Shown: positions 3,376 to 64,000 of the stretch, in pieces | Position numbering within the stretch: position 1 is the first letter of the stretch | Layout: each line of letters starts with the position of its first letter | Assembly (NCBI GenBank): GCA_036274315.1 | Contig: DASUFY010000243.1 | Span: 1,329 to 65,328, forward strand | DNA from: Planctomycetota bacterium | GTDB lineage: Bacteria; Planctomycetota; UBA1135; UBA2386 | Reading direction: 5' to 3' | Length of the DNA stretch: 64,000 bases | Made by a program: the position numbers and the translations under genes | The notes under the pieces: generated by a model | What the model saw: the letters and a program-made list of their open reading frames with translations, nothing else | Told to the model about the DNA's origin: nothing | Database searches by the model: none

Positions 3376-3789
3376 TAAACACAAATGCCTCAGCCGAGTC
3401 CAGCCAACTCGTAGTCGATGGAAATGCCGACCTCCGGCACGTCCGTGTTCCAGGGGAGCCTACCGGCAACTCTCGACGACGCAACCGCCGCCGCTGATGT
3501 GAGGTGCGCCGGCCCGATGCGAGTCGGCGAGAACTGTCTATCCACGGCGCGGGGCTCCAGGCGCGGCAACCGTGGCAATCGGAGCTGATGCAGTCGCGGC
3601 CGGGACAGGAGCAAGCGCGGCAGATGGAACGTCTCAGCTGCCTTGCCGCACGACGAGCGCGATGCGGGCGACGACCAGCGCGGTGCCGATCGCGGGCGGC
3701 AGACCGACCCTGCAGTCGCCGACGAGCGCGGAGACAGCATCGCGAACACTGGCTTCAGATAGGAGATGAGCGCGACCCGCAACTCCGGC

Positions 3790-4010
3790 ACCACAACCCG
3801 CGGTCGCTCCCAAAGCACGCGAGCTTCGTCTCACCCACAGCACGGATCTCGCCATCACGTTCGCGGCGCGCTTCGTAGGCGAGCACGAGGGCGCGTTGCC
3901 CGCCTCGGCGTTGCGCACGCCGATGACCACCACCTCGTCGTAGCCGACACGCCTGTGGTAGCGACAGAGAACCCGCAGCTGGTCCGGGATTCTGGCAAGC
4001 TTGTCCTTGG
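3790..4010 (-). pseudogene. Frameshifted C-terminal fragment of a 4HBT/YbgC-type acyl-CoA thioesterase (diverged paralog of 15515..15922)
   Basis: Two minus frames give CRYHRRVGYDEVVVIGVRNAEAGNA and then LVLAYEARRERDGEIRAVGETKLAC. The intact gene has CRYLKPVDYDDVVAIAVRIAEAGKAAIVLAYEARRERDGEVCAVGTTKLAC. A 1-nt deletion sits near 3895 and the N-terminal half is missing. Confidence 0.6.
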
Positions 4011-12870: not shown

Positions 12871-13144
12871 GCTACATCGCGAACGGCGTTGCCAGGAATG
12901 CCGCTGCCGATTGGGTTCGCCGATTCCGGTCGACAGCTGCTCCTCGTGCGCAAGCAACGATTCGTGGCGGTGTTGGATCGGGCATGGCCCGCGCCGGCGA
13001 ACAAGCGAGCCCTTCGCAACCATGCGCCGGCCCCGGCCTGAGTCCCCCTGAAGCCAGCCCAGTGACCGTGCGTTTCCCGCTCGAATCTGTTCGGTCACCG
13101 GGTGACACATCCATCAGAAGCGCGGACAGAACCGCGAGGTAAAG

Positions 13145-15514: not shown

Positions 15515-15922
15515 TCAACGGCCCGCGCCGGCGTCGAGCTCGGGCGGCAGCCGCCGCAGCTTGCCGTCGCGCCCGACGCACGCGAGCTTCGTCGTGCCCA
15601 CCGCACAGACCTCGCCGTCGCGTTCGCGCCGCGCTTCGTAGGCGAGCACGATGGCGGCCTTGCCGGCCTCGGCGATGCGCACGGCGATCGCGACGACGTC
15701 GTCGTAGTCGACGGGCTTGAGGTAGCGACACGAGAACTCGACGACCTGCAGCAGGTTGCCCTCGTCCTCCATCTGCTTGTAGGTCTTGCCGCGCGCGCGC
15801 AACCACTCGGTGCGCGCCTCCTCGAACCAGGCGACGTAGCTGCCGTGGTGCGCGACGGCCATGCGGTCCGTCTCGCAGTAGCGCACGCGCACCCGGTGCG
15901 GCGGTCCTTCGAAGCCGCTCAC
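15515..15922 (-). CDS. 4HBT/YbgC-family acyl-CoA thioesterase
   Basis: HRVRVRYCETDRMAVAHHGSYVAWFEEARTEWLR hotdog-fold signature. The GTG start overlaps the stop of the upstream dehydrogenase (GTGA). Confidence 0.85.
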   Translation of the reverse strand: MSGFEGPPHRVRVRYCETDRMAVAHHGSYVAWFEEARTEWLRARGKTYKQMEDEGNLLQVVEFSCRYLKPVDYDDVVAIAVRIAEAGKAAIVLAYEARRERDGEVCAVGTTKLACVGRDGKLRRLPPELDAGAGR

Positions 15923-35887: not shown

Positions 35888-37384
35888 ATGCGCCACCTCA
35901 GAGGCCTCGCGTCCCTTCTCGCCACCACGCTGCCGCTCTTCGCCCAAGGCGACTTCGACCTCGACAAGGTCACGTCGGGCACGCTGGGCGGCACGCTGAC
36001 CCTGCAGGTGGCCAATGCGGCACCGAGCTTCCCGCTGCTGTGGATGGTCAGCCAGACCGCGGGGCCGACGCCGGTGGCGCTGCTCGATCCGCTCGACCCG
36101 CGCTCGGTGGCGGTCGGCCTCGACCTGCTCGGCAACTGGGGGCTGCAGCTGACGAGCCCGACCGGCGGCGCGGTCTACAGCGTCGGTCTGCCGAACGACG
36201 CGGCCTTCAACGGCTACGTGTTCCACTGGCAGGCCGCGACGTTCCCGGGCGCCACCACGTTCCTCGACGGCATCGCCAACGCCGCGACCACGCACCACGG
36301 CCAGGCGTCGACGAGCGCTGCGCTGCCGAACGCGCTGCTCGCACCGCGCGCCGCCGCGACGTTGTGCTGGGCGCGCAACCGCAACGCGGGTCAGGGCGAC
36401 TTCCTGCTCGTCAGCGGCGCGTCGACCGAGTTCTTCCAGTTCCGCACGCTCGATTCGGCGGCCGGTCCGGCGATGAACACGCCGCGCGCGCTGTACGCTT
36501 CGGCCACGCTCAACGACGGTCGCGTGCTGTTCGCGGGCGGCGTCGACGGCAGCGGCGCCGTCACCTCGTCGTGCGAGATCTACGATCCGATCGCCAACAC
36601 GTTCACCGCGGTCGCGAGCCTGCTCGGCCCGCGCGCGGGCCACGCCGCGGCGACGCTCGCCGACGGTCGTGTGATGGTCGCGGGTGGCACGACGAACTTC
36701 ACCGACCTGACGACGGCGATCACGGCCGCACTCAACACGGTCGAGATCTACAACCCGGTCACCAACACCTGGACCGCTGGACCGAACATCGGCGGCAACC
36801 GGTTGGTGCCGGCGCTGACGCGCCTCAACACGGGTCGCATCATGATCTCGGGCGGCATCGAGGTGACGCTGTTCCTCGGCATCCCGCTCGCGCTGACGTC
36901 GACCAACAAGGTCCAGCTCTACAACCCGGCGACCAACACCTGGTCGAACGGCGCGAACATGCCGATCGGACGCGCCTACCACCACGACAGCCAGGTCACG
37001 CTCGCCGACGGCCGCGTGCTGCTGACGGGCGGCGTGCTCGTGCCGGACCTGCTCAACGCGGCGAACGCGGCGTCGATCGCCAACGCGGACCTCTACAACC
37101 CGGCGACCAACACCTGGGCGGCGGGCACGATGTCGCACGCGCGCACGGGCCATTCGGCGACGCGGCTCGCAAACGGCAACGTGATCGTCTGCGGCGGCGC
37201 CGAGGGCCTGCTGTCGGCCGCCGTGACGCTCGACGCCGTGGCGCGCTTCGATCCGACGACCAACACCTGGACGGACCTCGCGCCGATGACGACGGCCCGG
37301 CTCGGCCACACGGCCGCGGCGCTGCCCGACGGCCTGCTCGTGATCCTCGGCCCCGACGCGTCGGGTGAGGCACTGCACTTCTGA
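35888..37384 (+). CDS. Secreted Kelch-repeat beta-propeller protein
   Basis: Signal peptide LASLLATTLPLFAQG. Kelch units PRAGHAAATLADGRVMVAGG, GRAYHHDSQVTLADGRVLLTGG, ARTGHSATRLANGNVIVCGG. Confidence 0.85.
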   Translation: MRHLRGLASLLATTLPLFAQGDFDLDKVTSGTLGGTLTLQVANAAPSFPLLWMVSQTAGPTPVALLDPLDPRSVAVGLDLLGNWGLQLTSPTGGAVYSVGLPNDAAFNGYVFHWQAATFPGATTFLDGIANAATTHHGQASTSAALPNALLAPRAAATLCWARNRNAGQGDFLLVSGASTEFFQFRTLDSAAGPAMNTPRALYASATLNDGRVLFAGGVDGSGAVTSSCEIYDPIANTFTAVASLLGPRAGHAAATLADGRVMVAGGTTNFTDLTTAITAALNTVEIYNPVTNTWTAGPNIGGNRLVPALTRLNTGRIMISGGIEVTLFLGIPLALTSTNKVQLYNPATNTWSNGANMPIGRAYHHDSQVTLADGRVLLTGGVLVPDLLNAANAASIANADLYNPATNTWAAGTMSHARTGHSATRLANGNVIVCGGAEGLLSAAVTLDAVARFDPTTNTWTDLAPMTTARLGHTAAALPDGLLVILGPDASGEALHF

Positions 37385-37495
37385 GCTGGGTTGCCCAGCG
37401 GCGCTCCGCGCCGCTGGGCAAACCAGCTCAGGACCTCCTACCGCTCCTGCGGGCGCCTGACGGCGCCCTGGGGAGCGGGAGAGACCGGTTCTCAG
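37382..37495 (+). repeat. Structured 3'-flank element, copy A (20-bp hairpin plus a conserved tail of about 65 nt)
   Basis: Starts at the TGA of 35888..37384. Hairpin gctgggttgcccagcggcgc-tcc-gcgccgctgggcaaaccagc pairs 19/20. The tail ctcaggacctcctaccgctcctgcgggcgcctgacggcgccct is identical (43 nt) to the reverse complement of 57810-57852. Confidence 0.8.
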
Positions 37496-39351
37496 TCCGG
37501 GTTGGCCATGCGCTCGGGCGCGAGGATCGCGGCGATGGGCTCGGTGAACAGGCCGCGCCCGCGCAGCACGTCGGCGACGCTGCGCCGCGTCGCGAGCGCG
37601 TCGGCGGCCACCTGGGTCGCCACCTCGTAGCCGAGCACGGGCACGAGCGCGGTGACGAGGCCGATGCTGTTCTCGACGAAGTGGCGGCACTGTTCGACGT
37701 TGGCCTCGATGCCTTCGACGCAGTTGTGGCGCAGCGTCTGCACCGCGTTGGCGAGGATCTTCAGCGACTCGAGGATGCACGACGCGATCACGGGCTCCAT
37801 CACGTTGAGCTGCAGCTGGCCGGCCTCGGCCGCGAGCGCGACGGTCAGGTCGTTGCCGATCACGCGGAACGCGACCTGGTTGACGACCTCGGGGATCACG
37901 GGGTTGACCTTGCCGGGCATGATCGACGAACCGGGCTGCCGCGGCGGCAGGTTGATCTCGCCGAGACCCGCTCGCGGACCCGACGACAGGAGCCGCAGGT
38001 CGTTGCAGATCTTCGAGAGCTTGATCGCGAGGCTCTTGAGCGACGACGAGAACATCACGAACGCCTGCGTGTCGGCCGTCGCCTCGATCAGGTCCACGGC
38101 CAGCGTCAGGTCGATGCCCGTGACCTGGCGCAGGTGCTGCATGGCCCGGTCGCGGTAGCCCTTCGGCGTGTTGAGGCCGGTGCCGATCGCGGTGCCGCCG
38201 AGGTTCAGCACGCGCAGCTCGTTGCGCGTCTGCTGCAGCCCGGCGAGCTCCTGCCGCAGGCTGGCGGCGAAGGCGCCGAACTCCTGGCCCAGCGTCATCG
38301 GCACCGCGTCCTGCAGCTGCGTGCGGCCCATCTTGACCACCGCGCCGAACTGCTGCGCCTTCTGCACGAACGCGGCGGCCAGGCCCTCGACGCTGTCGAT
38401 CAGGCGCTGGCTGCTGAGGATCATGCTCAGCTTGAGGGCGCTCGGGTAGACGTCGTTGGTCGACTGCGAGCAGTTGACGTGGTTGTTGGGGTGCAGCCGT
38501 TCGTAGTCGCCCTTGTCGTGGCCGAGCAGCTCGAGCGCGCGGTTGGCCAGCACCTCGTTGGCGTTCATGTTGGTCGAGGTGCCCGCACCCCCTTGCAGCA
38601 CGTCGACGACGAAGTAGTCGTGCAGCTTGCCGGCGATCACCTCGTCGGCCGCGTCGGCGATCGCCGCGGCGAGCTCGGGCCGGATGGCGCCGCAGTCGCG
38701 GTTGGCGAGCGCGCAGGCCTTCTTGATCATGGCCAGCGCCTTGATCAGGTTGGGATAGGCGTTGAGCCGCACGCCGCCGATGTCGAAGTTGCTCAGCGCG
38801 CGCATCGTCTGCAGACCGAAGTACGCCTCGGCCTGCACCGGGCCGTCGCCGAGCAGGTCGTGCTCGGTGCGCGTCCGCCCGGTCGAGAACGCGTGCGTGA
38901 CGCCGCTCGTGCGGAAGAGCAGCTGGTCGACGCGGCCGACGACCTCCGCGAGCAGGCTCGACAGCATGCGCTTCTCGAGCGCATGGTCGTTGCCGACGAA
39001 CGCACGCAGCTTGTCGGCGTGCAGGAACGCGACCTCGACCTCGTCGATCGCCGTCGCCGTCGTCGAGTGCACCGAACCCTCGATGAGCATGCCCTCGCCG
39101 AGCAGGTCGCCGCGCACGAGCGTCACGACCGGGCGCGCGACGCCGTAGGGATCGACGCGCGTGAGCTGCACGGCCCCGCGGCGGATCAGCAGCAGCCGCG
39201 CGCGGCGGTCGCCCTCGACGAACAACGTCTCGCCTTCGCGATAGACGCGGCGCTCGATCTGCGCGAGCAGCCGGGCGCTCTCTTCGGGCGTTAGCTTGGT
39301 GAAGATGTGAACCTGGCGGAAGGCGCTGGCCAGGTCGTCGTTGTGTGGCAT
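37492..39351 (-). CDS. aspA: Cyclic-nucleotide-binding domain fused to aspartate ammonia-lyase (class II fumarase/aspartase family)
   Basis: The N-terminal 135 aa or so show the CAP_ED pattern (YREGETLFVEGDRRARLLLIRRGAVQL...GDLLGEGML). The rest is aspartase (GAGTSTNMNANEV, signature GSSIMPGKVNPVIPE). An alternative GTG start exists at 39402. Confidence 0.9.
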   Translation of the reverse strand: MPHNDDLASAFRQVHIFTKLTPEESARLLAQIERRVYREGETLFVEGDRRARLLLIRRGAVQLTRVDPYGVARPVVTLVRGDLLGEGMLIEGSVHSTTATAIDEVEVAFLHADKLRAFVGNDHALEKRMLSSLLAEVVGRVDQLLFRTSGVTHAFSTGRTRTEHDLLGDGPVQAEAYFGLQTMRALSNFDIGGVRLNAYPNLIKALAMIKKACALANRDCGAIRPELAAAIADAADEVIAGKLHDYFVVDVLQGGAGTSTNMNANEVLANRALELLGHDKGDYERLHPNNHVNCSQSTNDVYPSALKLSMILSSQRLIDSVEGLAAAFVQKAQQFGAVVKMGRTQLQDAVPMTLGQEFGAFAASLRQELAGLQQTRNELRVLNLGGTAIGTGLNTPKGYRDRAMQHLRQVTGIDLTLAVDLIEATADTQAFVMFSSSLKSLAIKLSKICNDLRLLSSGPRAGLGEINLPPRQPGSSIMPGKVNPVIPEVVNQVAFRVIGNDLTVALAAEAGQLQLNVMEPVIASCILESLKILANAVQTLRHNCVEGIEANVEQCRHFVENSIGLVTALVPVLGYEVATQVAADALATRRSVADVLRGRGLFTEPIAAILAPERMANPD

Positions 39352-39474
39352 CGGGAGGGTCCGCTTGGGCAGCGCGGCGTCGCGCGCGCGGCATCGGACC
39401 ACCGCCCCGCCGCGCCGTCCACTCTTCCATGCCGCTCCGGGTGCGCCGCGCCGCGAAGCCGCCGTGCGAACGGG

Positions 39475-56330: not shown

Positions 56331-57730
56331 GCCGCGCCGGGTCGGCCGAACGTGTGCTCGTCGGCTGCCTCGGCGCCTACGCGGCGATCGGCGGCCTCGG
56401 GTCGTGTTGGCTGCTCGCGCACCGCACCGTGCCCGACTGGATCCTGCCCGTCGCCTGCCTGCTCGGTGCACTGCTCGCGGCCACGCATCGCACCGGCCCG
56501 GCGCCGGACCCGGCGCCCGCGCGCCCGTTCCTGGTCTGGCTCGCGCTCGCGACCGTCGTGACCCTGACCGCCGTGCTCGCCTACGGCTCGCTGGCCACGC
56601 CGTCGCGCGAATGGGACGGAGCGGTCGCCTGGGATCTCAAGACCGCGGTGCTGCGCGCCGACCCGTCGCTCGAGCAGCCGTTCTTCCGCGAACCCGCGGT
56701 CTATTGCCACAGCCGCGACTACCCGCTGCTGCAGCCGCTCGCGATCGCGCTCGTCGAACGCGCCGGGCTGCCGGGCCGGCTGCTGTTCCCGCTCGCCCAT
56801 CTGCTGCTCGTGGCCGCGGTGCTGGCCGCCGCGCGCCGCGCCGGGGCCGGCGGCAACCGGGCGCTCCTGTTCGCGACCGCGTGTGCCGTGACGCCGATGC
56901 TGGTCAATCCGACCGGCGGCGGCTTCGACTCGGGCTATGGCGACGCCGTGCTCGCCGCGGTGCTCGCTGCCGCCGCGCTCGGCGTCGCGGGGCGCATTCC
57001 GCTGCTGGTCGCGCTCGCGGTCTTCGTCGCGGCGCTGCAGAAACCCGAAGGGCTGCCCTACGCCGCGCTGCTGGTCGCCGCGTGTGCGCTCGCCGGCGAC
57101 TCGAAGCTGCTGCGTCCGGCGACCGGGGCACTGTGCGTCGCGGGCGCGCTCGCGCTGTCGATGCAGCACGACCTGCTCGACCTGGGCCGGACCTCGACGT
57201 GGTGGCGCTGCGCCGGCGCATCGGCCGGGCTCGGCGCGGCCGTGCTCGGTCTCGACGCCTGGCTCACGCGCCGCCGCGCCGCGCTGCCCACGCGCCTCGT
57301 CGTGCTGCTGCTCGCGCTGCCGCTCGCCGTCGTGTGCCTGGCCTGGCTCACGGGCCAACACGGCAGCCTCGGCGTGCACGTCGCCGACGGAGCCCGCCCG
57401 CTGCATCGCATCGGTCGCCTGCCGGCGATCCTGCTCGCCATCGCCGATTGGGGCTGGCTGCAGGGCCGCTTCGGCCTGACCTTCGTGCTGCCGCTCGTGA
57501 TCGCGGTGGCACAACGACGCCAGCGCGCCGCCGGCACGGCGCCGGCGCTGCGCAACTGGCTCCTGCTCGCCGTGCCGCTGTGGTGCGCGGCATTCCTGCT
57601 CTCGCCGATCGACGACCTCGAACACCACCTGCGATCGACGCTGCCGCGCCTCCTGCTCCACTGGTGCGGCGTCGCGTGGTGCTGGAGCGCCACGCAGCCC
57701 CTCACCCGCGACGGCCCCCAGGCAACCTGA
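56327..57730 (+). CDS. Polytopic membrane protein, GT-C-fold glycosyltransferase-like (tentative)
   Basis: At least 10 predicted TM helices. The first loop carries acidic/aromatic residues (SREWDGAVAWD), reminiscent of ArnT/PMT-type enzymes. The functional assignment is weak. Confidence 0.6.
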   Translation: MSRAGSAERVLVGCLGAYAAIGGLGSCWLLAHRTVPDWILPVACLLGALLAATHRTGPAPDPAPARPFLVWLALATVVTLTAVLAYGSLATPSREWDGAVAWDLKTAVLRADPSLEQPFFREPAVYCHSRDYPLLQPLAIALVERAGLPGRLLFPLAHLLLVAAVLAAARRAGAGGNRALLFATACAVTPMLVNPTGGGFDSGYGDAVLAAVLAAAALGVAGRIPLLVALAVFVAALQKPEGLPYAALLVAACALAGDSKLLRPATGALCVAGALALSMQHDLLDLGRTSTWWRCAGASAGLGAAVLGLDAWLTRRRAALPTRLVVLLLALPLAVVCLAWLTGQHGSLGVHVADGARPLHRIGRLPAILLAIADWGWLQGRFGLTFVLPLVIAVAQRRQRAAGTAPALRNWLLLAVPLWCAAFLLSPIDDLEHHLRSTLPRLLLHWCGVAWCWSATQPLTRDGPQAT

Positions 57731-57790: not shown

Positions 57791-57902
57791 TCAGAACCGG
57801 TCTCTCCCGCGCCAAGGGCGCCGTCAGGCGCCCGCAGGAGCGGTAGGAGGTCCTGAGCGAGTTCGACCAGCGGTGCTTTGCGCCGCTGGTCGACCTCGTT
57901 CA
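57791..57902 (-). repeat. Structured 3'-flank element, copy B
   Basis: Starts at the TGA of 57900..59666 on the minus strand. Hairpin acgaggtcgaccagcggcgc-aaa-gcaccgctggtcgaactcgc pairs 17/20. The tail is nearly identical to copy A. Confidence 0.8.
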
Positions 57903-59666
57903 GAAGCCGACCGTGATCTCGGTGCCGTTCGACGTGACGAGGTTCAGCGGCGTCGCGAGCGAGAAGGCCACCGCCTGCACGCGCAACTGGGTGCCGGCGA
58001 ACATCGCGTTGTTCGGGATCGGCAGCAGCTGGTTGCCGCTCCACGTCATCGACGAGACCGGGAACGACAGCGAACCGATGTTCGCGTTCGTGTAGCCGAA
58101 GCAGCCCGGCATGCCGAGGAACGTCAGGTCGAGCCCGGGCAGGATCTTGGTGTCGCCGACGAACAGGAACGCGAGCGGCACGATCGGCGGCACGTTCGTC
58201 GCAGTGGTCGAGAACGACGAGTTGCCGATCGTCGGCAGGCCGTTGGCCGTCAGCGCCAGGCCCAGGAGCTGCGCATCGGCGATGTTGATCGCACCGAACG
58301 CCGAGGACAGGTCCGTGGCGCCCGGATCACCCGAGGGCCCGGCCACCGAGTAGCCGACGACGATGTTGTCGACGCTGGCCGGACCGGACATCGCCCCGAT
58401 CACGAGCGTCAGGTCGCCCGTGGCGAGGTTGAACTGGAACTGCATCGTGTTGGGCGTGGTCGTCGTGTAGCTGTAGACGCCGTTCCAGGTCACGTAGGCG
58501 AAGCCCGAGATCTCCTCGAACGTGATCATGCCGCTGCCCGCCTGGGTCTGGTCGTAGTCGTGCCAGCAGGCGAACACCGTCGACGCGTCGGCCAGCAGCT
58601 CCGCGGCCGACGGTGTGTAGTCGATCGTCGCGCTGCCCGGCCCGCCGACCTCGACCTGACCCTTCGTCGTCACGTTGAGCGTCGTCGTGGTGCCACCCGC
58701 GACCGGCATCGCCGAGGACAGCGTGAACTGCTGCTGGCCGTCGAGCAGCCCCATCGCGACCGGCTGGGCCGCGGCCGTCGGCGGCACGAACGTGCCCGGC
58801 AGGCTGTTGAGCACGATGTAGCCGTTGCCCGTGCGCAGCATGGTGATGACCGTGTTCGACAGATCGAACGCCGCCATCGCCGAGAACTCGTAGAACGAGT
58901 CGCTCTGGGTGATGCACCCGGTGCCGTAGTTCGACGTGGATGCACAGTTGACGCTGGGGGCGGAGAAGAACGTCCAACCGGGATTGGTCGGGATCATGTC
59001 GAGGCCCGCGGAAGCCATGTCGAACGTGGCGGGCGTCAGCCACTGCTCGAACAGCGTGTTGTCGGTCGTGGCACCACCCGCCGACAGATCGCTCGCCGCC
59101 GGCAGCGTCACGCCACCGCCCACCGAGACACCCGTGATCCCGACCTGCCATGTCGGCTGGCTCGCGATCGAGTTGTTGGTCGTGCCGGGGCCGTAGGTGC
59201 AGTGGATCGCGCCGGACGGAGAGAGCGTCATCTGCATGTCGAACAGCGGCCCACCCGCGAGACCATTGTTGTAGATCTGCGCGTTCTTCCACGTGATCGT
59301 GCACTGCGTGGTGGTGCTGCTCAGGAAGCACGCTCCGCTGTTCCCGGAGAGGCACTGGATGTCGGACCACAGGGCGCAGATGCGCGGCGGCCCCGATGCG
59401 AGTTCGGCGGCGGTGGCGGTGAAGTCCGCGCCGCCCGGCGCCGGGATGCCCGCATTCGACAGGTAGACATAGCCCTTGTCGCAGACGTGGATGTTCGTGA
59501 ACGTCTGGCCCGCGAGCGGGAACGCGAAGCCGATCGGCTGGATCGGGTAGACGACGTCGCCGCCGGCACCCAACGAGACTCCGGGAGTGCCGATCACGCA
59601 GTTTTGTGCGAACGCCGGGAGGGCCAGCACACCGACCGCAAGACCGCCGAGGAACTTGTGCATCAT
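57900..59666 (-). CDS. Secreted protein with two NIDO-like regions and the shared C-terminal module
   Basis: Signal peptide MMHKFLGGLAVGVLALPAFAQ. PIGFAFPLAGQTFTNIHVCDKGYVYL...ICALWSDI, then a second similar unit ending ACWHDYD. C-terminal LDLTFLGMPGCFGY...LPIPNNAMFAGTQLRVQAV. Confidence 0.8.
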   Translation of the reverse strand: MMHKFLGGLAVGVLALPAFAQNCVIGTPGVSLGAGGDVVYPIQPIGFAFPLAGQTFTNIHVCDKGYVYLSNAGIPAPGGADFTATAAELASGPPRICALWSDIQCLSGNSGACFLSSTTTQCTITWKNAQIYNNGLAGGPLFDMQMTLSPSGAIHCTYGPGTTNNSIASQPTWQVGITGVSVGGGVTLPAASDLSAGGATTDNTLFEQWLTPATFDMASAGLDMIPTNPGWTFFSAPSVNCASTSNYGTGCITQSDSFYEFSAMAAFDLSNTVITMLRTGNGYIVLNSLPGTFVPPTAAAQPVAMGLLDGQQQFTLSSAMPVAGGTTTTLNVTTKGQVEVGGPGSATIDYTPSAAELLADASTVFACWHDYDQTQAGSGMITFEEISGFAYVTWNGVYSYTTTTPNTMQFQFNLATGDLTLVIGAMSGPASVDNIVVGYSVAGPSGDPGATDLSSAFGAINIADAQLLGLALTANGLPTIGNSSFSTTATNVPPIVPLAFLFVGDTKILPGLDLTFLGMPGCFGYTNANIGSLSFPVSSMTWSGNQLLPIPNNAMFAGTQLRVQAVAFSLATPLNLVTSNGTEITVGF

Positions 59667-61780: not shown

Positions 61781-63508
61781 TTACCAGGTCGTGATCAGGG
61801 CCGTGAAGAAGGAGTAGCGCATGTCGTTCGAGTCGTAGATGCGCGCAAAGCCCTCGTCGGGGATCAGCGCCGAGGCACCGAACTGCACGATGACGTTGTT
61901 GGTCAAGAGCGGCCGGTATTGCGTGCCGAAGAAGACCTCGGTGCCGATCGACTTGCTGATGTCGGCAGCCTGCAGCAGGAACTCGAGCGACTCGGTCTTG
62001 TCGAAGCGCAGATAGGTCGCGCCGACCTGCGCGCGCCACTTCGGGGCCAGCTCGGCGTCGACCGCACCGCCGATCAGCAGCACGCCCGGATTGACGAAGT
62101 TCGACTGGCCCTGGGTCTTCGAGGTCTTGAGGTCGGCGAGCGGGCTGCCGGGATTGGTCAGGTTGGTGCCGACGAACTTGAGTCCCTGCGAGTTCCAGAA
62201 CGAGAACGAACCGCCGCCGAAGTTCGGGTTGTCGACGATCGAGTCGAAGCCCTTGCCCTTGCCGTCGCGCGGATCGCTGTCGCCCGACGCATAGAGCGCG
62301 AAGACGCGCGGCCGCCACCAGTCGATGTCGTAGGACAGCTCCGCCGCGGCGAAGCGCGCCTCGATGTCGATCGGCCGCGCCGCGATCGCATTCTGCTCCT
62401 CGCTGCCGAACGCGCGGTAGAGCTGGTGCGTGATGTTCCAGCGGCCCAGGTGGCCCTCGCCGGCCCAGCCGAAGTAGTAGGCGTCCAGCTTGTTCGGCGT
62501 GAAGTTGCCGATCGGCGCCGGCGCGACGAGGAAGCCGTTGTCGTCGAACTCGACGGCACGGCGATCGCGGTTGTAGTGGAACGACAGCGAGGTCGTGTAG
62601 CCCTTGACCGGCCAGTCCTGGCGATAGATGTTGGCGATGAACACGTTCTGGTCGCGATCCTCGTAGCGGTTGAGCTGCGAGTTGGTGTCCTTGTCGAGCT
62701 CGTCGAACGCCGCCAGGTTGAACTGCCACTTGTTCTGATCGGCGTTGCCGAAGAACCGGATGCCGAGGTTGGTGTCCTCGAACAGGAAGCCGCGGAAGTC
62801 GCTGCGGAACGGCAGCACACCGGCCTCGACGCTGGCGAAGTCGTAGCGGTCGCTGAGGTCGAACAGGTGGTACTCGACGAACGCCTCCTGCAGCGTGACG
62901 TCGCCGCGGTTGCGCGTCGTGCCCTGCGCCGGGTCGATGACCACGACGCCGACCTCGTTGACGTCGAGCCTCGTGTAGTTGAACACGGGCGTGATCCGGA
63001 TGCGCCAGTCGACGGGGCGGAACGCCTGCTGGCCGCGGAACAGGTCGAACGTCAGCGCGAAGTCGTCCTGGATGAACGTCTGCCGGCCGTCGCCGAAGTT
63101 GTTCGGGTTGACCGGGCCGGGCCCCGTGATGCCGCTCGGCGTCGGCACGTCGCGGCGTTCGTAGAACAGGCGGTTCGTCGCAGTCAGCGAGAAGAACAGG
63201 TCCTCCGTGCCGAGGATCGGGAAGTCGCCCTTGAGTTCGTTCTGGCGGTACGGATTCCACCACGCCGCGGGCTCGTTGACGATGTAGTCGGGCGGCTCTA
63301 CGCCGCCGACCGGGCGACCGGGCGCGAACCAACGCGATGGGAACGGCTCGAAGTCGCGCAGCGCCGGCGGCTGCGCCGCCGGTCGACCCTGCGGCTCCCC
63401 ACCCTGCGGTTCCTGACCCTTCGGCTCCTGAGCCTGCGGTTCCTGTGCGACGCTTGCGACCGCGAGGCAGCCGAACCCCACCATCAGCGGAAAGACCCAG
63501 CGTGTCAT
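61781..63508 (-). CDS. Outer-membrane beta-barrel protein (uncharacterised family)
   Basis: GAGGA SD, signal peptide MTRWVFPLMVGFGCLAVASVAQ, amphipathic beta-strand pattern throughout, C-terminal aromatic end SFFTALITTW. Its stop lies 2 nt before the lipoprotein start. Confidence 0.8.
   Translation of the reverse strand: MTRWVFPLMVGFGCLAVASVAQEPQAQEPKGQEPQGGEPQGRPAAQPPALRDFEPFPSRWFAPGRPVGGVEPPDYIVNEPAAWWNPYRQNELKGDFPILGTEDLFFSLTATNRLFYERRDVPTPSGITGPGPVNPNNFGDGRQTFIQDDFALTFDLFRGQQAFRPVDWRIRITPVFNYTRLDVNEVGVVVIDPAQGTTRNRGDVTLQEAFVEYHLFDLSDRYDFASVEAGVLPFRSDFRGFLFEDTNLGIRFFGNADQNKWQFNLAAFDELDKDTNSQLNRYEDRDQNVFIANIYRQDWPVKGYTTSLSFHYNRDRRAVEFDDNGFLVAPAPIGNFTPNKLDAYYFGWAGEGHLGRWNITHQLYRAFGSEEQNAIAARPIDIEARFAAAELSYDIDWWRPRVFALYASGDSDPRDGKGKGFDSIVDNPNFGGGSFSFWNSQGLKFVGTNLTNPGSPLADLKTSKTQGQSNFVNPGVLLIGGAVDAELAPKWRAQVGATYLRFDKTESLEFLLQAADISKSIGTEVFFGTQYRPLLTNNVIVQFGASALIPDEGFARIYDSNDMRYSFFTALITTW
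63387..63446. repeat. 15-nt tandem repeat x4 encoding (Q/G)EP(Q/K)(A/G) units after the OMP signal peptide
   Basis: ccctgcggctcccca / ccctgcggttcctga / cccttcggctcctga / gcctgcggttcctgt. Confidence 0.75.
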
Positions 63509-63671
63509 GCGGTTCCTCACGAGACTCGTTCGACCAGAAAGCCCGGGCGATTGGAGCGCGATGGCCCGGCCCATGGAAGAAGAACTTGCGAGGCAGGGGC
63601 CACCTCGTTCGACTCTTTCCTGCGGGCCCTCGCATCGCGAAGAACTCCGATCTAGCATCGCGCCCGCTGAC

Positions 63672-64000
63672 GATGCCGAGCTTCCAGCTGATCATTCGCG
63701 AACCCGGCAAGGAGCCGCGATCCGTGCCGCTGTCCTCCGCGGTGGTCGTGGGCCGTTCGCGGCGCGCGAACGTGACGATCGAGGATCAGGAAGTCGGGCG
63801 CGAACAGTTCCGCATCGAGATCCAGGGCACCACCGTCTACGTCGAGAGCCTCGGGCGCACGAACCGCACCCGCATCGACGAGTCGACGCTCGACGCGGGC
63901 ACGCGCATCGCGCTGCCGGCGAGCGCGACGCTGTATGCGGGCCGCACGACGTTCCAGGTCGTCGCCGCGGGCGCGACCCCCGGCGAGTCGCCGCCGGCCG
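63672..64000 (+). CDS. FHA-domain protein (5' part only; continues beyond the window)
   Basis: I translated this myself: MPSFQLIIREPGKEPRSVPLSSAVVVGRSRRANVTIEDQEVGREQFRIEIQGTTVYVESLGRTNRTRIDES...GRTTFQVV. There is no stop before position 64000. Confidence 0.75.

Follow-up and report, generated by a model that had tools for sequence, protein, structure and literature searches.

The DNA examined here is a stretch of 64,000 nucleotides (nt) from a Planctomycetota bacterium (contig DASUFY010000243.1 of assembly GCA_036274315.1), referred to below, in its whole length, as the window. It contains two copies of a structured element, one on each strand, both lying at the 3' end of a protein-coding gene. 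Copy A occupies 37379-37492 on the + strand (114 nt) and copy B 57793-57905 on the - strand (113 nt). The copies can be aligned from CTTCTGA through CCGGTTCT, and the similarity ends sharply on both sides. They share a 43-nt identical run that occurs exactly twice in the window, at 37427-37469 (+) and 57815-57857 (-), with 0 occurrences expected in shuffled sequences, and the pair of copies is the longest inverted repeat of the 64 kb. Compared with shuffles, their fold energies correspond to z = -8.9 for copy A and -6.2 for copy B. A conserved structured segment present twice and sharing such a run had been put forward in a first reading of the letters alone (the sequence-only reading), and the alignment, the shuffles and the folding bear this out.

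The left box of copy A, TTC TGA (37379-37384), consists of the last sense codon (Phe) and the stop codon of a Kelch gene (35888-37384), whereas that of copy B (57900-57905, - strand) is formed by the last codon and stop of a gene for a 588-aa protein (57900-59666). Both open reading frames (ORFs) end in-frame at TTC TGA, N-terminal signal peptides are predicted on both products, and the two proteins are unrelated; the earlier statements that each copy reads in the orientation of its upstream gene, that both genes are of the secreted-protein type, and that no gene-duplication remnant is involved were therefore correct. The location at the gene end had also been recognized, with the boundary placed at the stop codon itself. 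This start point has to be moved to the Phe codon (37379 and 57905), because UUCUGA as a whole is the 5' base of hairpin 1, where it pairs with UCAGGA.

Both copies fill convergent gaps, in agreement with the sequence-only reading. Copy A ends on the T that opens TCA at 37492-37494, which on the - strand is the stop codon (TGA) of a convergent gene (37492-39402) whose fusion product joins a cyclic-nucleotide-binding domain to an aspartase/fumarase-class lyase; this overlap had been noted before and is confirmed. The same fusion gene stands beside the Kelch gene in a second metagenome-assembled genome (MAG; L009, 3548-5407, - strand in the window). The downstream neighbour of copy B is a + strand gene for a polytopic membrane protein ending at 57730, and the frame opposite to it is Arg/Glu-rich nonsense. 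Neither a U-tract terminator nor a sigma-70-like promoter overlaps copy A or B. Hairpin 2 is followed by tails such as TCTCA and TCTGA, and the claim that a canonical intrinsic terminator is lacking holds at both sites.

Each copy is built of two hairpins and a short central box. In copy A, hairpin 1 (37379-37433) comprises an 11-bp lower stem, in which the left box pairs with TCAGGA (37428-37433), a G37390.A37422 mismatch, a variable upper stem and a 3-nt loop. The central box TCAGGACC (37428-37435) can, with one G.U, pair with the 5' UUCUGA as well as with the 3' GGUUCU. Hairpin 2 (37430-37492) consists of AGGACC, TCCTA, CCGCTCC, the variable hairpin GGGCGCC-TGAC-GGCGCCC, GGAGCGG, GAGAGACC and GGTTCT. 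Copy B has the same architecture on the - strand, with hairpin 1 at 57851-57905 (mismatch G57894.A57862), the central box TCAGGACC at 57849-57856 and hairpin 2 at 57793-57854; its terminal GGTTCT is followed by GA, so that TTCTGA is recreated at the 3' junction (57796-57791). Four base pairs of hairpin 1 differ between copies A and B by compensatory double changes (T-A/G-C, G-C/A-T, T-A/C-G, C-G/A-T), and these, like the common G.A mismatch, were found at their coordinates as previously described. The earlier view of the tail did not survive: GGACCUCCUACC, taken to be single-stranded, pairs in the consensus fold with GGGAGAGACCGGUU as the outer helix of hairpin 2, and its resemblance to the anti-Shine-Dalgarno (anti-SD) end of 16S rRNA concerns a stretch within this base-paired segment.

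The data examined comprise 64 kb of the window genome and up to 22 kb of flanks from relatives. Pattern scans and ortholog look-ups yielded seven further copies beyond the window, in soil metagenome contigs and Planctomycetota MAGs. A 20-mer of the conserved run had 0 matches in 185,579 species-representative genomes; in metagenomes it identified two soil contigs, L002 and L003, each with a whole element. (Another match of this 20-mer, in the low-GC contig L004, was rejected as a chance hit without hairpins.) With a relaxed two-anchor pattern, two Planctomycetota MAG contigs were found: L005, which has two units (L005a and L005b), and L006, in which the element follows groEL. The regions downstream of host-gene orthologs contained a short copy (L007/L008) and a 3'-truncated one (L014). 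A covariance model, R1, was built from six copies of the longer subtype, type 1, and scored them at 95-108 bits (copy A, 97.5; copy B, 97.0). On the loci where R1 was run it detected no further copy, and neither did scans of the examined loci with the box motifs. Part of the check proposed in the sequence-only reading, a covariance model with positions recorded against stop codons, has in this way been carried out on the loci examined: relatives carry further copies, and all lie at an in-frame TTC-TRA.

Three scans of viral contigs gave 0, 0 and 52 matches; the covariance model scored none of the 52, which were accordingly regarded as chance matches. Plasmid and phage collections contained no match to the element. 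The whole 64-kb window gave 0 matches to Rfam 15 at gathering thresholds, and in E-value mode the window and the element matched only generic hairpin (miRNA precursor) models, far below threshold.

The order of parts is the same in all copies, i.e. TTCTRA, hairpin 1, YCAGGACC, hairpin 2 and GGTTCT, over a length of ~75-115 nt. TTCTRA forms part of the 11-bp lower stem of hairpin 1; position 12 is occupied by a purine-purine mismatch in 9/9 copies, and the upper stem beyond it varies in length and sequence. There are two subtypes: in the long type 1, to which copies A and B belong, an invariant outer helix (UCCUACCGCUCC with GGAGCGGGAGAGACC) encloses the variable inner hairpin of hairpin 2, whereas the short type 2 is devoid of this helix. 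Because of the pairing of AGGACC with GGUUCU, the central box has two complementary partners, the 5' UUCUGA and the 3' GGUUCU(GA), and the predicted minimum-energy folds alternate, from copy to copy, between these two pairings. The wobble G of this box is invariant in 9/9 copies. While the boxes are invariant, the sequences of the GC-rich hairpins drift with pairing kept: 96.8% of the cells are paired and 12 of the 37 pairs show double changes, values that 0/500 shuffles reached and that collapsed in slid controls. In L006 the stop is TAA instead of TGA, with a compensating change of TCAGGA to CTAGGA, which gives a three-way set TAA / CTAGGA / TTCTAG. A protein-coding extension and selenocysteine recoding (bacterial SECIS) were considered and rejected, as the reading frame of the conserved boxes differs between copy A and L002 and the L006 copy uses UAA.

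The position of the element is strikingly uniform. At all eight independent loci it begins at the in-frame TTC-TRA of a high-GC3 (GC content at third codon positions) ORF of 222-609 codons, in sense orientation; the search that led to six of the eight used DNA similarity only and took no account of genes. Convergent gaps hold seven of the eight, and the exception is L003, where a co-directional Uma2 gene follows ~230 nt downstream. The host genes are unrelated to each other: they encode the Kelch protein, the 588-aa protein of an unknown family, the KH+S1 end of polynucleotide phosphorylase (PNPase), an AlgX-like SGNH hydrolase, another unknown protein and GroEL. Secreted and cytoplasmic proteins, including GroEL and PNPase, are both represented. 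A link to secretion or localisation is unsupported.

Comparison with homologues in three families (Kelch, GroEL and that of copy B) shows the terminal Phe to be the host protein's own residue. The 120 Kelch homologues, down to 47% identity, end in ...HF or ...RF, and GroEL in this clade ends in MDF or MGF. In the family of copy B the last residue is variable (N, L, F or Y), and the window protein and its nearest ortholog both end in GF. In the secreted Kelch family, the C-terminal pattern ...E-A-[LM]-H-F (or ...L-R-F) recurs in more than 100 homologues over the same range of identity, which hints at a functional C-terminal signal.

Two observations concern the surroundings of these gene ends. 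In L006, an ordinary hairpin with a T-run terminator (3446-3513) lies between the element after groEL and a convergent phosphodiesterase gene, so that the element is not the sole 3' structure there. Uma2-family endonuclease genes are located close to element-bearing or target gene ends at two loci (L003, ~1430-2002; L068, 7664-9145), a proximity that is probably coincidental.

Occupancy of orthologous gene ends is patchy. The end of the Kelch gene is filled in the window (type 1) and in L007 (type 2), bears a remnant in L009 and is empty in L010, L068 and L071. That of groEL is filled in L006 (type 1, stop TAA) and in L014 (a type-2 hairpin 1 and CCAGGACC, then truncated), and empty in L011, L013 and L070, with no remnant seen; the gene end of the copy B family is filled in the window (type 1), empty in L067 and likewise without a remnant. 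The L009 remnant is a 58-nt hairpin spacer (3490-3547) in the orthologous Kelch/aspartase-fusion gap. Its 5' arm (GCCAGGTCGCCC) resembles hairpin 1 of the family, AGGACC and GGTTCT are absent, and it may be a decayed copy. One MAG, GCA_039921435.1, combines a tandem at one gene with the remnant behind the Kelch gene, and a third gene end in it is unoccupied. The tandem (L005) consists of a type-1 and a type-2 unit sharing TTCTGA. To judge from the lineages compared, one and the same gene end is occupied independently by two subtypes in different lineages and unoccupied in others. Such patchiness is indicative of a dispersed repeat that is gained and lost, and not of a cis-regulator tied to particular genes.

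The junctions point in the same direction. When the segment from behind the left TTCT through the right GGTTCT is cut out, TGA or TAG is restored at five of seven loci, with a chance of ~0.13 per locus (binomial P ~5e-4). This suggests insertion after TTCT, whereby the element would bring along its own RA and the native stop would come to lie 3' of it. Every full copy has TTCT at its left and its right junction; since this sequence is identical everywhere, a target duplication is indistinguishable from a conserved end. Neither a locus-specific duplication beyond TTCT nor templating of hairpin 1 from the right flank was significant (permutation P = 0.07).

Based on these observations, we consider it probable that the element is a non-autonomous, target-specific dispersed repeat of an uncultured Planctomycetota clade, similar to REP (repetitive extragenic palindromic) sequences and PATEs (palindrome-associated transposable elements), and not a regulator of particular genes. 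It would be mobile, now or recently, with orientation-specific insertion at TTCT(RA). The apparent homing to stop codons can be explained by the extreme rarity of TTCTRA in genomes of 70% GC, where, outside gene interiors and 5' regions, it occurs almost only at TTC-TGA ends. TTCTGA occurs six times in the window, whose GC content is ~70%: at the two filled gene ends, at the junction that copy B itself creates, in the interior of a gene, near 13119 at the meeting point of two divergent ORFs, and in the 5' leader of a small ORF. In other words, both in-frame gene-end sites are filled. A 6-nt target together with purifying selection is enough to account for the exclusive placement at Phe-stop ends and for the single orientation. 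Having RA at its beginning and TTCT at its end, the element would preserve a stop codon for the host gene and regenerate its own target; the L005 tandem is attributable to this restoration of TTCT(GA) at the 3' junction.

By analogy with REP/RAYT and IS200/IS605, we speculate that an enzyme of the HUH/Y1 type might handle the element as folded single-stranded DNA, cutting after the CT of TTCT at both ends, which the central AGGA(CC) box would hold in place by pairing. After insertion, the element would be co-transcribed with the upstream gene, and its two very stable 3' hairpins might protect or terminate the mRNA as a side effect. A secondary function of this kind for the hairpins in the transcript is possible.

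Among the three options offered in the sequence-only reading, a REP/MITE-like (miniature inverted-repeat transposable element) sequence with orientation bias fits best, and a small RNA (sRNA) derived from the 3' untranslated region (3'-UTR) or an mRNA stability or localisation element is less supported. It had also been held that a plain dispersed repeat would show random orientation and position relative to genes and no covariation. Orientation and position turned out to be strictly non-random and covariation strong, which by this criterion would speak against a plain repeat. This test misleads, however, because a repeat whose hairpins are kept as structure, and whose 6-nt target is tolerated almost nowhere but at TTC-TGA gene ends, is predicted to have the same features.

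Several points weigh against a mobile repeat. Among the ~40 ORFs of the window no transposase (Y1 transposases included), integrase or reverse transcriptase was found, and no full-length parent element was seen in the loci examined. The copy density appears low, two per 64 kb here, and most of the relatives' flanks that were fetched are without any. Removal of the element restores no stop in copy A (TCA) or L003 (TGC). Among the loci compared there is no pair of filled and empty sites with otherwise identical flanks, the nearest relatives sharing only ~80% protein identity, and insertion is for this reason inferred and not seen directly. The HUH/single-stranded-DNA mechanism is an analogy only. 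Finally, the strict sense orientation, the burial of the stop codon in a stem and the unvarying G.U wobble between the central box and each end are also what selection on RNA might produce.

The inverted copies A and B do not bound a composite transposon; this possibility was rejected, since the 20 kb between them consist of ordinary genes that are syntenic with another MAG.

The likeness to REP sequences, REPINs and BIMEs mobilised by RAYTs is considerable. These are short GC-rich imperfect palindromes dispersed at gene 3' ends, also in tandem clusters, with pairing conserved over sequence, short invariant tags and a conserved stem mismatch, and all these features have their counterparts in the element. 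REPIN hairpins commonly carry compensatory changes (PMC3116915). TnpA-REP cleaves at a CT beside the hairpin and needs a conserved stem irregularity (PMC8266576); the junctions of the element likewise end in CT, the dinucleotide cleaved by this enzyme (PMC8266576). A REP terminus is often the source of the stop codon of the neighbouring ORF, and gaps between convergent or unidirectional genes are the preferred location of REPs (PMC3733652). On the other hand, no GTAG or CGTC stands at a conserved position in the alignment of 6-9 copies, GTAG being present only in L005a, via a compensatory substitution. The unit consists of two different adjacent hairpins and three boxes, and not of a single REP or a symmetric doublet; every copy is locked to TTC-TRA in one orientation, and the copy number appears low. 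REPs are present in tens to hundreds of extragenic copies per genome, some of which flank a RAYT gene. No RAYT gene was seen in the loci examined (64 kb and flanks). Classical MITEs differ in that the element has no terminal inverted repeats: its 5' end (GAGCTGGG...) is unrelated to the reverse complement of its 3' end (...CCGGTCTC), and its inverted repeats are the internal hairpins. As neither the defining tags of REPs nor the terminal inverted repeats of MITEs are present, the element is described as REP/PATE-like and is assigned to no named family.

The ends of IS200/IS605 elements and PATEs lack terminal inverted repeats, have a hairpin near each end and are inserted in a specific orientation 3' of a fixed short target, which is retained at the left junction. 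The element resembles PATEs derived from this family, with hairpin 1 at the left, hairpin 2 at the right, no terminal inverted repeats and TTCTRA at the left junction in 9/9 copies. The cleavage sites of IS200/IS605 are set through pairing with an internal guide (PMC8266576). Both TTCT ends of the element are complementary to the central AGGA(CC), which parallels this arrangement. IS608, however, has a separate guide for each end, located 5' of the respective hairpin, and its two hairpins resemble each other; in the element, both ends would share a single central box, and hairpins 1 and 2 are unrelated. Among the loci examined there was no cognate element bearing tnpA/tnpB with the same ends, and to our knowledge none has been described. 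MIRUs, the small oriented repeats of mycobacteria, have, like some other intergenic repeats, ends that overlap flanking stop or start codons; they lie inside operons, carry short coupled ORFs and are not hairpin-based. Like them, the element is an oriented small repeat whose end is the stop codon of the upstream gene and which can form tandems; unlike them, it lies mostly in convergent gaps and has no conserved reading frame, as the comparison of copy A with L002 shows.

The strongest competitor, which we regard as possible but distinctly less likely than a repeat, is a primarily cis-acting RNA module of the 3'-UTR, i.e. a stabiliser, a bidirectional terminator without a U-tract or a termination-coupled switch, maintained by selection on RNA and disseminated by duplication or recombination. 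As a switch, it would depend on a ribosome that, on arrival at UGA, melts hairpin 1 and frees UCAGGACC to pair with the 3' GGUUCUGA. Such a module would account for the sense orientation of every copy with the stop codon within a stem, for the strong covariation (including the TGA to TAA change of L006 that is matched by TCAGGA to CTAGGA), for the alternation of the predicted folds, for the invariant wobble G and for the convergent gaps, where a terminator is useful. However, the host genes have no common function, their orthologs manage without the element, and the groEL gene of L006 keeps its ordinary terminator after it. The variable G.U and A.C mismatches are equal in number (4 vs 4), and the top and bottom strands, compared for asymmetry as a test for RNA, fold about equally well with no consistent difference. 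Apart from the invariant central wobble G, there is thus no RNA-type strand bias. Loops and bulges are usually the functional parts of RNAs, whereas the conserved parts here are the junction boxes. Together with the lack of an Rfam match, this makes it more likely that any RNA role is a by-product.

A rather improbable variant, still a mobile unit, would guide itself: UCAGGACC would pair with its own junctions (UUCUGA at the left, GGUUCUGA at the right) and so set the excision and landing sites at Phe-stop ends, where the stop codon would be rebuilt, the unit moving either as single-stranded DNA by means of an undescribed HUH-type or other enzyme, or as RNA by reverse splicing or retro-insertion. 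If this were true, the three-way change of L006 and the invariant wobble G would be signatures of the guide function.

We find it hard to credit the idea that the element is a structure-specific recombination site like integron attC, recognised as folded DNA by a tyrosine recombinase. AttC sites are imperfect hairpins (57-141 nt) just 3' of an ORF, often over its stop, with conserved outer boxes and a variable top, and they are recognised as a folded single strand, which is plausible for the element as well. Hairpin 2 of type 1 could indeed be read as R-box, spacer, L-box, variable top, L-box, spacer and R-box (AGGACC, 5 nt, CCGCTCC, the variable hairpin, GGAGCGG, 8 nt, GGTTCT), with a top conserved in structure rather than sequence, directly 3' of ORFs and overlapping the stop codon. 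However, the core sites do not fit the attC consensus RYYYAAC / GTTRRRY, the boxes being TTCTGA, TCAGGACC and GGTTCT. Hairpin 1 has no counterpart in attC sites, the extrahelical bases typical of these were not recognized, and type 2 is devoid of the L boxes. The window copies are solitary, 20 kb apart and inverted, and elsewhere the element follows housekeeping genes (groEL, PNPase) and faces convergent genes, so that co-oriented cassette arrays are not seen; no integrase was found in the window.

An independent sRNA gene, or an sRNA derived from the 3'-UTR and acting in trans via CCUCCU or GGGAGAG, is equally doubtful. The element is conserved, strongly structured and ~100 nt long, and has both an anti-SD-like ACCUCCU and an SD-like GGGAGAG. 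Yet these two stretches pair together in the consensus fold, no promoter-like site was found at either window copy, there are many copies per lineage at unrelated genes with variable presence, and Rfam has no matching family. Chance similarity, a remnant of gene duplication or an artefact of assembly, for which nothing speaks beyond the general GC-rich, hairpin-prone nature of the sequence, can practically be dismissed, as the shuffles predict 0 matches, the upstream proteins are unrelated and the element is present in independent JGI, NCBI and ENA/Logan assemblies.

A REP/PATE-like repeat at Phe-stop gene ends would add a family from an uncultured, poorly studied Planctomycetota clade to the elements of this kind. 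Small structured repeats at gene ends are already well known; what is distinctive here is the combination of three boxes with two hairpins unrelated to each other, a central box that is complementary to either end and an unusually clean choice of target, the Phe-stop targeting and the shared central box being the unusual traits. The case also calls for caution in RNA-motif discovery, as stop-codon position, single orientation and strong covariation can come from the target specificity of a DNA repeat and the maintenance of its hairpins. The conserved boxes provide a handle for finding the recognising enzyme, whose gene might be sought between a hairpin 1 and a hairpin 2. Should both cleavages be guided by the central box, a compact programmable system would be conceivable.

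The element also matters for annotation, as it appears to break short-read assemblies just past certain genes. Two Logan short-read contigs with the Kelch gene, L001 (end 2801) and L008 (end 9760), terminate inside hairpin 1, 37 and 42 nt past the Kelch stop codon, respectively.

Other repeats were observed in the window apart from the element. A non-coding stretch of ~750 nt (~300-1077), dense in short repeats, lies upstream of a small ORF (1078-1296) whose product is Cys-rich and has a signal peptide; it contains three copies of CTCGGTTGCTCTTC at 320-363 and ~10 boxes of the GCGTCGCGCA type with 26/85-nt periodicity at 507-726. The segment 51749-51777 is a perfect run of TG dinucleotides, (TG)14.5, which is unusual for a bacterial genome at 70% GC. 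Within a minus-strand ORF (61781-63691), a 15-nt tandem repeat of ~4 copies (63385-63445) would encode a repeated pentapeptide. Finally, segments 3791-3950 and 15554-15714, 11.8 kb apart, show direct similarity over ~160 nt (~83% identity) and are probably paralogous gene segments.

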